Source: Sedimentisphaerales bacterium (GTDB taxonomy: Bacteria; Planctomycetota; Phycisphaerae; Sedimentisphaerales; Anaerohalosphaeraceae). Taken from it: a stretch of 64,000 bases of DNA. Shown here one piece after another: positions 2,725 through 52,460 of this stretch; position 1 is the stretch's first letter; each line of letters begins with the position of its first letter. A program made the translations under genes and the position numbers. The stretch is taken from positions 1,685 through 65,684 of the forward strand of contig JAFGGE010000002.1 in the NCBI GenBank assembly GCA_016930745.1, read 5' to 3'. Under the pieces are notes generated by a model, which did not search any database, was not told the origin of the DNA, and saw only the letters and a program-made list of their open reading frames with translations.

Positions 2725-3639
2725 ATGGCCATGAAGCCGACGTTACTGATTCTCGCGGCGGGGATGGGCAGCCGATACGGCGGTCTCAAGCAGATCGATC
2801 CTGTCGGCCCTAACGGCGAGATTATCATCGATTATTCGATCTACGACGCCCTTCGAGCCGGCTTCGGAAAACTGGTCTTTGTCATACGGCATTATTTTGA
2901 GCAGCCATTCCGGGAAAAAATCGGCGGCAAGTTTGACGGCTGTGTGGAAACGGCCTATGTCTATCAGGAGATGAATTCCGAAATCGGCGCTTTCAAAGTG
3001 TCGTCCAATCGCGAAAAACCCTGGGGGACTGGCCATGCAGTTCTGGTCGGAAAAGACGTTATCGACGAACCCTTCGCCGTGATCAACGCCGACGATTACT
3101 ATGGCGTCCGTTCCTTTCAAATCATGGCGGATTTCCTTGCCGGCGGACAGGTTTCGGCCACGGACTATGCGATGGTGGGCTTCACCCTGCGCAATACCCT
3201 CAGTGAATACGGCAGTGTCGCCCGTGGGGTGTGTCATCACGATGGCCAGGGATTCCTAAAGGAGATTACCGAACGCACGACGGTTGAAAAAGTCGGCCAT
3301 AAAGCGCGTTATATCGACGAGACAGGTACAGCACATGCCCTTACCGGCGACGAGACCGTTTCCATGAATCTCTGGGGTTTTCATCCCTCTTTTTTGGGGC
3401 ATTTGTCGTACGGCTTTGAACAGTTTCTCATGCAAAAAGGCCATGATCCCAGGGCGGAAATGTTTATTACCCTCATTGTCGACGGCCTGATTAAAAGCGG
3501 TATGGCAAGGGTGAAAGTGTTGCCGACTTGTGACAAGTGGTTTGGCGTAACCTACCGAAACGATATGCCGATTGCCCGGAAATGTATTGCCGATTTGATC
3601 GAGGCAGGAACCTATCCCAGGCAACTTTGGAAAACATGA
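2725..3639 (+). CDS. sugar-1-phosphate nucleotidyltransferase
   Basis: The N-terminal LLILAAGMGSRYGGLKQ is the nucleotidyltransferase signature (LAAGxGxRxxxxxK). Later motifs are KPWGTGHAVL and INADDYYG. Its stop overlaps the next start (ATGA at 3636-3639). Confidence 0.8.
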   Translation: MAMKPTLLILAAGMGSRYGGLKQIDPVGPNGEIIIDYSIYDALRAGFGKLVFVIRHYFEQPFREKIGGKFDGCVETAYVYQEMNSEIGAFKVSSNREKPWGTGHAVLVGKDVIDEPFAVINADDYYGVRSFQIMADFLAGGQVSATDYAMVGFTLRNTLSEYGSVARGVCHHDGQGFLKEITERTTVEKVGHKARYIDETGTAHALTGDETVSMNLWGFHPSFLGHLSYGFEQFLMQKGHDPRAEMFITLIVDGLIKSGMARVKVLPTCDKWFGVTYRNDMPIARKCIADLIEAGTYPRQLWKT

Positions 3640-39476: not shown

Positions 39477-39740
39477 GTGATTATTATACGGATTGTTATC
39501 CTGGTTGCATTGATACGTCTGTTAACCGCGACGGAACAGCCGTTTCTTTGTGCGGGATTATATGCAGGTGTGCGGTGTCTGTTTGCCGTCGCTATCAACG
39601 GTCCCTCCTGGTCCATCCTGGTTTTCGGTGCAGTAGCTTTCCTTCTGGCAAGCCTCTATTTCTGGCTGCTGGACCGTTTCGATGAAACATTCTGGTGGTG
39701 GATTATCATGGTGGTCGGTTTTGGGATTGGCCTGGTTTAA
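39477..39740 (+). CDS. small three-TM membrane protein, unknown function
   Basis: The GTG start is preceded by a strong AGGAGG 6 nt upstream. The 87-aa product has three hydrophobic helices. Confidence 0.5.
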   Translation: MIIIRIVILVALIRLLTATEQPFLCAGLYAGVRCLFAVAINGPSWSILVFGAVAFLLASLYFWLLDRFDETFWWWIIMVVGFGIGLV

Positions 39741-48990: not shown

Positions 48991-50592
48991 CTATTGGCCT
49001 CGGACTGCCCGCAGACAGGAGGCGACCTTGTGCTCGGTTTCATCAAATTCGGTTGCCGGGACACTGTCGTGAACGATCCCTGCCCCGGCCCGGATAAACG
49101 CGGTTTTATTCCGAATCTGGATGCTGCGAATCGTGATACAACTGTCGAACTGACCGTCCACTGTCAGGTACATCACAGCGCCGCCATAGTACCCTCGCTT
49201 GTTCTTTTCCAAGTGACGGATGATCTTCATGGCCTCGATCTTCGGCGCCCCGGTCAGGGTGCCCATATTCATCGTGGCCAGATACGCGCTCAGGGCATCC
49301 AGATCCTCCCTCAGGATGCCGCGGACATTACTAACCAAATGTTGAACCGACTCATATTTTTCCGTTACGAGCATTTCGGTCACCAGCCGGGAGGCGGGTT
49401 TGGTAACCCGGGCGATATCGTTTCGAGCCAGATCCACCAGCATCATATGTTCGGCCAGTTCCTTATGGTCCAGCTTTAGCTCCGCCTCATAGCGGCGGTC
49501 GGTTTCCGGATCGATCTGTCCGTTGGCTCGGCCTCGGGGCTTGGTGCCCGCGATGGGCCGAATCTCGACGGTCCGTTGCCCGGTGCCGCGAACCCGCAGA
49601 TTCAGTTCGGGACTGGCGCCGGTCAGGATCGTTGTAGGCGTATTCAAATAGAACATATAAGGGGATGGATTGAGCTTGCGCAGGCGGCGGTAGACATCCA
49701 GCGGTTCATCCGGACAGGGTTCGGCGATGGTCCGGCTGAGCACAACCTGAAAGATATCGCCGTCCAGGATATGCTGCTTGGCCTTTTCCACCATTTTTTC
49801 GTATTCCTGTCGCGGCGTATCGGTCCCTCCGGCAAAAGCGGGCAGGGGCTCTTTTTGGGCTTTTCTGCCCTGTGCGGCGGCGGTTTGATAGTAGTGATCG
49901 AAGCAATTTTTGGCTTGCTCCAGGATCGTATCCCGGTCGTCGTCGGTGATCATGACGTTGACCACGATATAGCCCTGATTGGCCGCGTGATCCATCAGAA
50001 AGATGTTGTCGGCAAAATACAGCTCATAATCAGGATTACCCAGAATATCGTTCTTGTTGGGGGGCAGCGCTTCAAATTGATCGATAAAATCATAACTGAG
50101 GGCCCCCAACAGGCCGCAGGTGACCCGGAACGGGTGGCTGGCCAGCTCAAAAGAAAAGGCGACGGCCCGCAGGACATCCATCTGATTGACGCTTTTCAGG
50201 CGGGTTTGTTCGTCGATCACGTCCTCGTTGGCCTTGAGGATGCCCGTAATCGCATCCTCCCCGAATTTCACCGTCTTACAGAAGGCGAATCGGTTTTTCT
50301 GACGGGCCAGATACCGCAGCATCCGCCGGCCGGTATCGGTCAGGGCCTTGATAGAGAATTCGTTGCCCTTGCCGGTCAGGTAGAGGGACGGTCGGGCCGT
50401 GCCAAACGTCAGCTCGCCGCCTCCTCCATGGGTCAGATAATCCCGCGACTCAAACAGGCAGCAATGGGGATTTCGCCCGAAATCGCTGAGCTTGCTGAAA
50501 AATTCCAGGGGATCGGTCATCTCGATCTCCTTGACGATCGGGATGATCTGCCCAGGTAGGGCGTTTTCTATCGTTTTTCGGTAATCTTCCAT
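48991..50592 (-). CDS. trpE: anthranilate synthase component I
   Basis: C-terminal chorismate-binding motifs are LSPYMFYL, GTLTGAPKIEAM and RGYYGGAV. The start is set at the ATG at 50592 (MEDYRK...). The 53 codons upstream in the track ORF cross the leader/terminator region and are not coding for TrpE. Confidence 0.9.
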   Translation of the reverse strand: MEDYRKTIENALPGQIIPIVKEIEMTDPLEFFSKLSDFGRNPHCCLFESRDYLTHGGGGELTFGTARPSLYLTGKGNEFSIKALTDTGRRMLRYLARQKNRFAFCKTVKFGEDAITGILKANEDVIDEQTRLKSVNQMDVLRAVAFSFELASHPFRVTCGLLGALSYDFIDQFEALPPNKNDILGNPDYELYFADNIFLMDHAANQGYIVVNVMITDDDRDTILEQAKNCFDHYYQTAAAQGRKAQKEPLPAFAGGTDTPRQEYEKMVEKAKQHILDGDIFQVVLSRTIAEPCPDEPLDVYRRLRKLNPSPYMFYLNTPTTILTGASPELNLRVRGTGQRTVEIRPIAGTKPRGRANGQIDPETDRRYEAELKLDHKELAEHMMLVDLARNDIARVTKPASRLVTEMLVTEKYESVQHLVSNVRGILREDLDALSAYLATMNMGTLTGAPKIEAMKIIRHLEKNKRGYYGGAVMYLTVDGQFDSCITIRSIQIRNKTAFIRAGAGIVHDSVPATEFDETEHKVASCLRAVRGQ

Positions 50593-50642
50593 TGGTTTTC
50601 TTTCTCCGGTCCAGGTTCCGGGAACTTTGGCAGGCGGGAAGC

Positions 50643-50679
50643 AAAAAAAATCGCAACCCATCCTGCGACAGGTTGCGAT
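50643..50679 (-). terminator. intrinsic terminator (attenuator) between the trp leader peptide and trpE
   Basis: The minus-strand RNA is AUCGCAACC-UGUCGCAGGAUG-GGUUGCGAU followed by U8. This is a 9-bp GC-rich stem plus U-tract, 50 nt upstream of the trpE ATG. Confidence 0.7.
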
Positions 50680-50729
50680 TTCTTTTCGGTCATCCAAATA
50701 CGAGAACAGAAACACCGCCGCCTGTCGGA

Positions 50730-50780
50730 TTATGCGACAGGCCACCACCATCCAAAACGTGCTCGCATGTTTCTATTCAT
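50730..50780 (-). CDS. trpL: trp operon leader peptide with three consecutive Trp codons (MNRN)MRARFGWWWPVA*
   Basis: My reading of the minus strand is ATG AAT AGA AAC ATG CGA GCA CGT TTT GGA TGG TGG TGG CCT GTC GCA TAA. In-frame ATGs lie at 50780 and 50768, and the UGG triplet at 50750-50742. It sits between a promoter-like element and the terminator, so the call is by position and content only. Confidence 0.6.
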   Translation of the reverse strand: MNRNMRARFGWWWPVA

Positions 50781-50787
50781 AGAAGCA

Positions 50788-50816
50788 ATTATGCCATATT
50801 TGCCGATTCGAGTCAA
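50788..50816 (-). promoter_or_regulatory. sigma70-type promoter for the trp leader (TTGACT-N17-CATAAT)
   Basis: On the minus strand, TTGACT lies at 50816-50811 and CATAAT at 50793-50788. The first leader ATG begins 8 nt after the -10 element. Confidence 0.5.
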
Positions 50817-50846
50817 AGCGAAAAATCAGAAAATTTACATTTTTTT

Positions 50847-52460
50847 TCAGGGCCTTGAGCCGGGAGACACCATGGAATTGCCTGTCGGACCTCCGCTGGC
50901 TGTATTCAGCTTATTTAGCATATCAATCAATTCGACAAGATGCTCCTTGGGAATCGCTAATTCATAGGTTACCATATCGTCTTGTATTGTAACTGCCATA
51001 GCCATCTTGGTCTTAAGCTGCTGGCCCATCTGACTGAGCATACCGATCATCATCAAAGCCTGCTGCATTTGTGGATCTTGATTTTGGCCCTGCGGCATCC
51101 CGACCGTAGCCATTATGCCGATCATTTCGAGGACATTAAACGCCCCGACAAAATCGGCTTGCTCTGCAGTTCGGAGGGCCTGCGTTGCCGGTGTGGTTTG
51201 AGAGGCTTTTTTCATTTGTTTGAAAAGAGCGATCATCTGAGCCGCTTCGGGAGGATCGTTGGGGCCAGATTGTAATTGGAAAAAATCTTTATTGATCATA
51301 GCCGAAAGTTCCGATCCGGGTACGACTTCCATTCGGATTTGCGCATTGAGCATCTGAACCGACGGATCCAGGGCAAGAGTCAGCCATTGCAATTGAGCAA
51401 GGAAATCAACCTGTTGCAACGCCATTTGCATTTGTGCAGAGCCTTGCCCCTGGGCTTGTTGAGCCTGGGCCAGCGTGGAAACCAATTGTGCTACCTGTTT
51501 GGAATTGACATACGCCCAGAAAGGCGACTCTTTCATTTGTGTTTGAAGATCGGGGGAAAACCGGCTGGCGATGGCGGTTCCGGTCATAAGGGCCTTAACG
51601 CTTTCCAGTTGGGTTCCCGCGTTGACGGCCGAAAAAAGGGCATATTGTCCTTCGGCAACAGGCGTACAAATCAACTCTCCAAGAGGAGAGTTTGGAGTGT
51701 TAATGCGATAAATCCCCGCCGGATCAGGAGGACTGACCCCCGGATTTTCCGAGGCGAAACGCTGGAAATCGGTTACCGGGACCAGAACCGCGAATTGCGG
51801 GACCTGCATCTGACTGCCGGGGGGCTGAGCCATCACGGAAAAAATCGCAATATCGCCATTGGTTTGAATGTTTTTTAACATTGGATCGCCCAAAGCTCCG
51901 CCGACGAATCCTCGAACCACCAGGGATAATCCCATCGGGATCGGAATGATTCCCTTCAGATAGCTGTCCAACTGGCCCATGGCGTAATCAAAATTCTTGA
52001 TCTTTACGCAGAACAGGCAGTCGGCGGGGACCAGGCTGAGCACATCCGGCGCCGGACCGGTTGTTGCCGTTTGAACGGGCTGTACCGGCGTCGGAGTAAC
52101 TTCGATCGGTTCTACCTCGGGAAGGCCCGTATCGGCTTTGACAGGAGGGGTTGTTATGATGCCCGGTTCGAGCGGTTGTTCCGGCTCGACCGGTTTGGGG
52201 GGAATCGGTTCGGTTACGGGAGGTGTCGGTTGTTCTTTTTGAAGCTGCCGGTCTCGCTCCTCCTGCCAGATCCGTTTGGGAGCCCCTTTCATGGGTTCGT
52301 GTCGGGCTTTGAGTTCCGTCTGGCCGGTCTGCTGTTTGCGGAACATCTCCATGGTCATCCGACCGATATCCTGACCGCCGACCTGGGCTACCGTTGTCCC
52401 AAGCAAGACCGAAGCGATCCATACAATCACGCATACTGTTCGGATTGGTTTTGAAAACAT
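50847..52460 (-). CDS. secreted/anchored protein of unknown function with a Pro-rich linker
   Basis: 537 aa. An N-terminal hydrophobic anchor is followed by a PT/PE-rich spacer (PTPPVTEPIPPKPVEPEQPLEPGIITTPPV...) and then a globular region of about 390 aa with no recognisable motif. Confidence 0.55.
   Translation of the reverse strand: MFSKPIRTVCVIVWIASVLLGTTVAQVGGQDIGRMTMEMFRKQQTGQTELKARHEPMKGAPKRIWQEERDRQLQKEQPTPPVTEPIPPKPVEPEQPLEPGIITTPPVKADTGLPEVEPIEVTPTPVQPVQTATTGPAPDVLSLVPADCLFCVKIKNFDYAMGQLDSYLKGIIPIPMGLSLVVRGFVGGALGDPMLKNIQTNGDIAIFSVMAQPPGSQMQVPQFAVLVPVTDFQRFASENPGVSPPDPAGIYRINTPNSPLGELICTPVAEGQYALFSAVNAGTQLESVKALMTGTAIASRFSPDLQTQMKESPFWAYVNSKQVAQLVSTLAQAQQAQGQGSAQMQMALQQVDFLAQLQWLTLALDPSVQMLNAQIRMEVVPGSELSAMINKDFFQLQSGPNDPPEAAQMIALFKQMKKASQTTPATQALRTAEQADFVGAFNVLEMIGIMATVGMPQGQNQDPQMQQALMMIGMLSQMGQQLKTKMAMAVTIQDDMVTYELAIPKEHLVELIDMLNKLNTASGGPTGNSMVSPGSRP

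Follow-up and report, generated by a model that had tools for sequence, protein, structure and literature searches.

A predicted leader-peptide attenuator upstream of the trpEGDFBA operon in Sedimentisphaerales, a lineage of Planctomycetota

What controls the tryptophan operon of a planctomycete in which a tiny open reading frame (ORF) rich in Trp codons and a terminator-like hairpin precede trpE? The locus that raises this question lies in a 64,000-nucleotide (nt) stretch of DNA, referred to here as the window, from contig JAFGGE010000002.1 of a Sedimentisphaerales bacterium (assembly GCA_016930745.1). An earlier inspection of the letters alone (the original prediction) had read positions 50,593 to 50,846 as a ribosome-mediated trp attenuator. 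Here we describe the anatomy, conservation, covariation, thermodynamic switching and ribosome geometry of this element, all of which were computed. From sequence comparison and folding models, the element is very probably a ribosome-mediated (leader-peptide, trpL-type) transcription attenuator that controls trpEGDFBA. Its identification as a well-conserved, canonical attenuator of Planctomycetota is strongly supported. The mechanism is a known one, and no earlier description was found for the phylum.

The leader ORF (trpL-like) lies at 50780-50730 on the minus strand, as do all parts of the leader and operon given below. It encodes MNRNMRARFGWWWPVA in 16 codons and ends with UAA (50732-50730). 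A second in-frame ATG is present at 50768. The putative regulatory codons are three consecutive UGG (Trp) codons at 50750-50742, and both the mini-ORF and its UGG run are found where the original prediction had placed them. For comparison, 80 genomic loci whose TrpE proteins are 70-92% identical were fetched together with the DNA upstream of trpE. A WW(W) mini-ORF precedes trpE in 74 of them, and these 74 leader sequences were aligned with MAFFT (alignment A1). They share one architecture, which consists of a TTGACA-17-TnTAAT promoter, a start codon without a Shine-Dalgarno (SD) sequence, a WW(W) ORF of 16 to 25 codons, and a GC-rich hairpin with a run of 6-9 U downstream of it, mostly about 50 nt before trpE. 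The remaining loci have cut-off sequence, runs of N or variant leaders. Conservation of the element in 74 related loci is the decisive evidence against a chance origin.

An independent sample points the same way. A pattern scan of metagenome contigs returned 120 matches, about 35 of which are true leaders with the same peptide type and a terminator. Where enough downstream DNA is available, 25 of 26 of these leaders precede trpE, and the scan found no true leader ahead of any other gene. The other 85 matches were rejected as chance hits in GC-rich coding DNA, one repeated gene fragment among them. One contig (L129:1-420) carries a bona fide leader and terminator followed by an ORF that starts mid-way in an HD-domain protein, not by trpE. 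This contig is probably chimeric.

The pattern of conservation argues that the mini-ORF is a translated frame and not an untranslated RNA motif. At the aligned start position 73 loci have ATG and one has GTG. In all 74 the frame runs from this codon through the Trp codons to the stop without interruption. The distance from the ATG to the first Trp codon takes only the values 30, 33, 36, 39, 42 or 54 nt, the range including a 21-nt insertion, so that every indel in these six length classes is a multiple of three. The number of Trp codons in the run varies from two (20 loci) to three (52 loci) and four (two loci). We infer from this conservation of frame that the leader is translated; the mini-ORF thus behaves in relatives as had been anticipated for a leader peptide.

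Two features of the peptide appear to reflect the RNA rather than the protein. Leaders of the majority subgroup share the consensus N-terminus MRQINRKN, and these codons are probably conserved because they are paired in a helix, P0, that is described below. The Pro codon that follows WWW is near-invariant because its CCU supplies three base pairs of hairpin 1:2. An arrest-peptide or TnaC-like signal at this Pro was considered and found unnecessary, because CCU both forms 1:2 pairs and mirrors region 3.

The secondary structure of the leader provides alternative partners for a single strand. Region 1 (GCCUGUCG, 50742-50735) comprises the last G of the third UGG and the Pro-Val-Ala codons. It pairs with region 2 (CGACAGGC, 50727-50720) across a 7-nt loop that contains the UAA stop, which is the hairpin 1:2 proposed originally. 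Region 2 is the switch strand, as its partner is either region 1 or region 3. Region 3 (50683-50666; AGAA, AUCGC, AA and CCUGUCG) serves both as the 5' arm of the terminator and as the 3' strand of the antiterminator. The 9-mer CCUGUCGCA indeed recurs at 50741-50733 and 50672-50664.

The intrinsic terminator (50679-50643) had been recognised at the right location, as AUCGCAACC/GGUUGCGAU followed by U8. It had been described with a 9-bp stem and a 12-nt loop, and this part needs revision. The stem runs on through CCUGUC/GAUGGG, in which two pairs are G-U, and is capped by a GCAG tetraloop; the hairpin thus has 13 bp and a folding energy of -18.6 kcal/mol. The 5' arm is AUCGCAACCUGUC (50679-50667), the loop occupies 50666-50663, the 3' arm is GAUGGGUUGCGAU (50662-50650) and the U8 run lies at 50650-50643. 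Because the stem has 13 bp, the repeated 9-mer falls in the 5' arm and not in the loop. The original prediction had worried that 2:3 pairing would meet only the loop and two stem pairs of the terminator; that doubt is removed, since the repeated CCUGUC is in the 5' arm. An A-rich tract 5' of the stem (AAAAGAAA, 50680-50687) is complementary to the U8 tail (50643-50650), so that the hairpin could in principle terminate transcription in both directions. There is no convincing gene on the plus strand that converges on the hairpin.

The window antiterminator is built from three blocks, CGACAGG:CCUGUCG, GCGGU:AUCGC and UUCU:AGAA. The extension GCGGU (50718-50714) pairs with AUCGC at 50679-50675. 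The third block lies in segment 2' (GUGUUUCUGUUC, 50715-50704), which forms either the 3' strand of P0 or the lower antiterminator (UUCU 50711-50708 with AGAA 50683-50680). P0 is a long-range helix between leader codons 2-6 and the segment directly 3' of region 2. Its 5' strand in the window is GAAUAGAAACAU (50778-50767), which there falls in leader codons 1-5 and pairs with 50715-50704 in the minimum free energy (MFE) structure. The MFE of the whole leader is -61.4 kcal/mol (z = -6.0 against shuffles).

Pair counts across A1 support all three helices of the switch, so the middle segment can pair with either copy of the repeat (1:2 plus 3:4, or 2:3) as had been suggested. RNAalifold on the raw MAFFT alignment recovered just the terminator and the outer part of 1:2; P0 and 2:3 were therefore specified by hand and tested with pair counts. 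Hairpin 1:2 (P1) and the terminator together are 95.7% paired. For the outer five pairs of 1:2 the value is 96.8% over the 74 loci, and for the terminator 95.2%. Two pairs of the terminator show GC/AU swaps, in 12 loci, and a third shows AU/CG swaps, in 22. In the antiterminator 2:3, formed by columns 142-150 and 223-232, pairing reaches 94.7%, compared with 18-41% in slid controls. This helix has double-sided changes at five of nine pairs, and none of 500 shuffles reached the observed covariation score. Its extension GCGGU:AUCGC is 77.9% paired at the family level, which is partial support. Column 223, an A or G in the shared strand, covaries with column 150 of region 2 (C-G 48, U-G 13, U-A 10) and also with column 255 in the 3' arm of the terminator. 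Such double covariation is expected of a base that alternates between two partners.

P0 is also maintained in the family. Its cells are 70.5% paired, compared with 31-45% in slid controls, and double-sided changes occur at 11 of 12 pairs. Compensatory cells number 70, compared with 42 +/- 5 in shuffles. At least six P0 pairs are present in the unconstrained MFE structure of 60 of the 74 loci.

Does the structure switch with the position of a ribosome? To mimic the moment of decision, each leader was cut at the terminator loop and folded with the positions occupied by a ribosome masked. The measure was the energy gained when the 5' arm of the terminator is allowed to pair upstream. The mean gain over the 74 loci is -13.9 kcal/mol (window -14.9) when the A site holds the last Trp codon. 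It is -2.65 kcal/mol with the stop codon in the A site (window -6.5) and -3.8 kcal/mol with no ribosome (window -0.9). In 71 of 74 loci the gain at the stall exceeds that in either other state by more than 3 kcal/mol, and at least half of the terminator arm is sequestered in the stalled state at every locus. With region 1 masked, the antiterminator is the MFE structure in 73-74 of the 74 loci. When only a 30-nt footprint is masked, leaving the 5' end free to form P0, the arm is still at least half sequestered and the antiterminator is the MFE structure in 73 of 74. The original prediction had called for folding with and without a mask of about 15 nt downstream of the UGG codons. A structure that competes with the terminator does exist, and it is more extensive than had been feared.

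The ribosome geometry is that of the classical model at every locus. When the last Trp codon occupies the A site, region 2 begins 15-22 nt downstream and none of it is covered in any of the 74 loci. With the stop codon in the A site, 67-100% of region 2 is covered, again in all 74. This holds for short leaders such as that of the window, in which the stop lies in the 1:2 loop, as well as for long leaders of the WWWPEDIHPTGER type, in which the stop lies beyond region 2.

A promoter precedes the leader. The -35 hexamer TTGACT (50816-50811) and an extended -10 element (50796-50788; TG at 50796-50795, then G, then CATAAT at 50793-50788) are separated by 17 nt as originally described, with the TG at -15/-14 as an addition. 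TTGAC is aligned at -35 in all 73 loci that have sequence there, and the spacer is 17 nt in 71 of these 73. Relatives share the -10 consensus TnTAAT, and 39 of 73 also have the TG. The gap between the -10 box and the start codon is 6-10 nt across the 73 loci and 7 nt in the window. An SD-like 4-mer is found in this gap in just three of 73, in line with the earlier remark that the leader has no SD. Promoter spacing and the absence of an SD suggest that transcription starts at or near the leader ATG and that the leader mRNA is probably leaderless or nearly so, which fits the original suggestion of a leaderless start.

These features fit the following model. Transcription would start from a sigma-70-type promoter at, or a few bases from, the leader ATG, and a ribosome would translate the 16-codon leader while the leader RNA of about 135 nt is being transcribed. 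When charged tRNA-Trp is plentiful, the ribosome would reach the UAA in the 1:2 loop with its footprint over region 2. After its release, P0 and 1:2 would re-form. Whether region 2 is blocked by the footprint or by P0 and 1:2, the 13-bp terminator and U8 would form and transcription would stop before trpE. If charged tRNA-Trp is in short supply, the ribosome would stall with one of the three UGG codons in the A site, covering region 1 and leaving region 2 free. Region 2 and its 3' flank could then pair with the emerging 5' arm of the terminator through the three blocks named above (CGACAGG:CCUGUCG, GCGGU:AUCGC and UUCU:AGAA). The terminator would not form, and RNA polymerase would continue into trpE. 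If the leader is not translated, P0 and 1:2 would form and termination would be the default. Read-through would thus be expected to depend on Trp supply.

Several observations weigh against this interpretation or narrow it. The promoter match by itself is at chance level (4 sites in 6 kb, with 4.5 expected). Judged by free energy only, the terminator (-18.6 kcal/mol) has a slight advantage in stability over the antiterminator, and the model therefore depends on co-transcriptional kinetics, as is the case for Escherichia coli. The -6.5 kcal/mol that the window leader still gains with a ribosome at the stop codon means that the terminator arm is partially sequestered in that state. P0 of the window taken alone is not significant against shuffles (z = -0.9). 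Among the relatives, one leader has an in-frame TAG at codon 7 (L012), another keeps WWW with an undetectable terminator (L023), and two have non-consecutive Trp codons (WIWCW in L066 and WRW in L076). Every relative examined has at least 70% TrpE identity, so the conservation described here is that of this clade. A protein homologue search with TrpE for more distant relatives says nothing on breadth beyond it, as the best 120 homologues listed are all at least 71% identical.

Four other explanations have to be weighed against attenuation. The simplest is that the hairpin and U-run merely terminate the upstream gene and that the mini-ORF is coincidental. This gene (50847-52460, minus strand) encodes 537 amino acids (aa) with no Pfam domain and a Gln/Met-rich C-terminal region; its stop is about 170 nt before the hairpin on the same strand, and the chance-level promoter match would suit such an arrangement. 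However, a homologue of the upstream protein is present at only one of the 80 loci, that of the closest relative (L001), and a rough ORF heuristic places the neighbouring upstream gene on the other strand in about 26 of 64. Whatever this neighbour, trpE is accompanied by the leader ORF and the terminator, and a conserved -35/-10 promoter intervenes between the upstream gene and the leader. Synteny and promoter together contradict this explanation, which the original prediction had named as the way it could fail, and we consider it barely credible. Alternatively, the leader could act after transcription, by translational coupling, by polarity or via the stability of a small RNA that is set free, without premature intrinsic termination. 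Intrinsic termination in Planctomycetota is little known, and a released attenuator RNA would be both stable and highly conserved. This option is nevertheless very improbable indeed, given a GC-rich hairpin directly followed by 6-9 U at every locus and a trpE ribosome-binding site that lies about 40 nt past the hairpin and in no conserved helix.

Alternative hairpins and a terminator would suit the expression platform of a riboswitch equally well, and translation of the leader is deduced from its frame. The same RNA might therefore respond to a bound protein, tRNA or small ligand (TRAP-, T-box- or riboswitch-like), with an untranslated mini-ORF whose UGG codons are an RNA motif. Such a motif would not account for a start codon fixed in position, for indels restricted to multiples of three, or for an in-frame stop that is always placed where a terminating ribosome covers region 2. 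A TRAP-dependent attenuator of the Bacillus type has about 9-11 (G/U)AG triplets 2-3 nt apart; the 189 nt of this leader contain three, none chained or spaced as required. T-box leaders are recognised by a specifier loop and the T-box sequence. No leader family among the Rfam covariance models, including RF00513 (Trp_leader) and the T-box models, matches the element of the window or a consensus-type relative even at E <= 10, and in 15 relatives no match at the position of the leader reaches the gathering threshold. The matches that were returned for window, element and relatives are chance, terminator-like ones and were discarded. The 74-sequence alignment contains no conserved aptamer-like domain beyond the switching helices. 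Sensing of the RNA by a ligand is thus very improbable. The remaining candidate is a DNA-binding repressor as the main control, with attenuation minor or vestigial, or as a second layer like E. coli TrpR. Its putative site is a near-perfect 9-2-9 palindrome, TGCTTCTAT-GA-ATAGAAACA (50768-50787), which extends across the predicted start of transcription and the ATG of the leader and occurs once in the window. The palindrome is kept in about 15 window-like loci, in some of which, by our reading, AUAGAAAC is apparently unused for P0. In contrast, the majority subgroup with MRQINRKN leaders lacks it and retains the full attenuator. Mismatches in the palindrome arms are uncompensated, and 18 of 100 shuffles contain one match at <=3 mismatches. 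Repression would also leave the conserved Trp codons, antiterminator and terminator unexplained, and the regulator is only hypothetical. We regard a repressor as the main control as improbable. The palindrome could be an operator, or a hairpin that sequesters the start codon on read-through transcripts; as an operator it would at best add a layer of control.

Set beside the attenuator of canonical design is a more elaborate form of it. The apparently leaderless start and the extra helix P0 are, on the sequences, variant features relative to the canonical design, and they raise the possibility of a distinct leaderless variant in which P0 does real work, the leader RNA also acts in trans, and the palindromic operator serves as a repressor layer in the subgroup of the window. 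We hold this fuller version to be doubtful. P0 might link the decision to terminate to the loading of a 70S ribosome at the nascent 5' end; alternatively, it might lock the released RNA. That the terminated leader RNA, abundant and strongly conserved, would regulate trpC or other unlinked trp genes in trans is pure speculation, by analogy with rnTrpL of Sinorhizobium.

The operon that the attenuator is predicted to control, trpEGDFBA (50592-44696), contains six genes, all identified by Pfam matches. These are trpE (50592-48991), trpG (49064-48369), trpD (48344-47322), a stand-alone trpF of 209 aa (47310-46681), trpB (46678-45497) and trpA (45487-44696). The ribosome-binding region of trpE lies at 50607-50590, with GGAG at 50607-50604 and the ATG at 50592-50590, and TrpE homologues align from residue 1 with the start at 50592. 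The trpE frame is open further upstream, to an ATG at 50751, which gives a 586-aa ORF (48991-50751) that overlaps the leader and includes the terminator. This ATG overlaps the UGG codons in a different frame. The extended frame is an annotation trap; some TrpE homologues in the databases have 539-562 aa instead of 530-533 aa, perhaps because their starts are over-extended. The gene for indole-3-glycerol-phosphate synthase, trpC, is outside the operon and must sit elsewhere. It would consequently escape attenuation in cis.

The closest genomes are metagenome-assembled genomes (MAGs) labelled Sedimentisphaerales, Anaerohalosphaeraceae or Phycisphaerae, all of them Planctomycetota. In an Anaerohalosphaeraceae MAG, a match to the Rfam Acido-Lenti-1 RNA (L020:2570-2616; 41.8 bits, above the gathering score) is located about 200 nt upstream of the trp leader. 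A scan of the window for further leader-peptide attenuators found none that is convincing and one weak match at 3167-3259. The sequence TGGTGGTGG occurs twice in the window, with 0.39 occurrences expected. Its second copy (39693) is inside an 87-aa, very hydrophobic ORF on the plus strand (39477-39740) that contains FWWW. This ORF looks like a small membrane protein and not a leader.

How does the element compare with known attenuators? It shares with E. coli trpL (RF00513) a short ORF with tandem Trp codons directly upstream of trpE, a 1:2 anti-antiterminator, a 2:3 antiterminator, a 3:4 intrinsic terminator with a U-run, and a stop codon at which a terminating ribosome would block region 2. 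There is no similarity between the two at the level of sequence or covariance model. The E. coli leader has a 5' untranslated region (UTR) with an SD, whereas that of the window has no SD and, as far as promoter spacing indicates, essentially no 5' UTR. The window leader has its Trp codons immediately 5' of region 1, and E. coli trpL has them inside it. A further difference is P0, which joins codons 2-6 to the segment 3' of region 2. The window leader has three Trp codons; E. coli trpL has two (PMC7755916).

The peptide itself resembles alphaproteobacterial and actinobacterial leaders such as MIKSLNIAVWWWAR and MFAHSTRNWWWTAHPAAH, two entries of supplementary file 3 of PMC7755916. Leaders of the alphaproteobacterial type (Sinorhizobium meliloti rnTrpL and those of Rhizobium, Agrobacterium and Brucella) appear in that file with 14-24 aa and WWW near the C-terminus, MIKSLNIAVWWWAR being an example. 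They have in common with the window element a WWW peptide upstream of trpE(G), and trpC is likewise outside the operon here. They belong to another phylum and their RNA sequence is unrelated. The released attenuator RNA of Sinorhizobium regulates the remaining, unlinked trp genes in trans (PMC6614838). The trpE leader of Corynebacterium glutamicum (cg4012) has three consecutive Trp codons (PMC4046766), and the ilvBNC leader peptide of this species is formed without a ribosome-binding site, as PMC4046766 relates from Morbach et al. 2000. Corynebacterium leaders are thus a precedent for attenuator leader ORFs with no SD or 5' UTR. The actinobacterial attenuators, those of C. glutamicum and the Streptomyces trpE leader, are unrelated in lineage and RNA sequence, and the leader described here would be leaderless by promoter spacing only.

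The only related case that we found in the Planctomycetes-Verrucomicrobia-Chlamydiae superphylum is the trpRBA operon of Chlamydia trachomatis, with a putative TrpL and the WWW of YtgCR. PMC7755916 describes a WWW motif that couples Trp supply to transcription termination in this organism. The putative TrpL is given there as an unvalidated peptide of 59 aa with non-consecutive Trp codons that is judged a poor attenuator; the functional WWW is inside the YtgCR protein and acts in trans (same paper). The element of the window, in contrast to the YtgCR WWW, has the form of a canonical cis-acting leader. The 16 species with a predicted TrpL in the list of Merino, Jensen and Yanofsky 2008, as it appears in PMC7755916, include Proteobacteria, Actinobacteria, Deinococcus and Chlamydia; Planctomycetes did not turn up when the supplements and species list of that paper were searched by term. 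A full-text literature search that combined Planctomycetes or Phycisphaerae with attenuator or leader peptide found no trp attenuator described for Planctomycetota. The searchable literature is thus consistent with the original prediction, which had been aware of no leader-peptide attenuation of trp genes in this lineage.

The finding would extend the known range of trpL-type control, and about 100 sequences are available for a model of a new RNA family. It may also offer a natural Trp-responsive switch for organisms with few genetic tools. To our knowledge, gene regulation in Planctomycetota is almost unstudied. Leader-peptide attenuation needs a ribosome that closely trails RNA polymerase. 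The conservation of a canonical trp attenuator thus speaks, if indirectly, for a physical coupling of transcription and translation in Sedimentisphaerales, and for translation that can start on a nascent, apparently leaderless 5' end.

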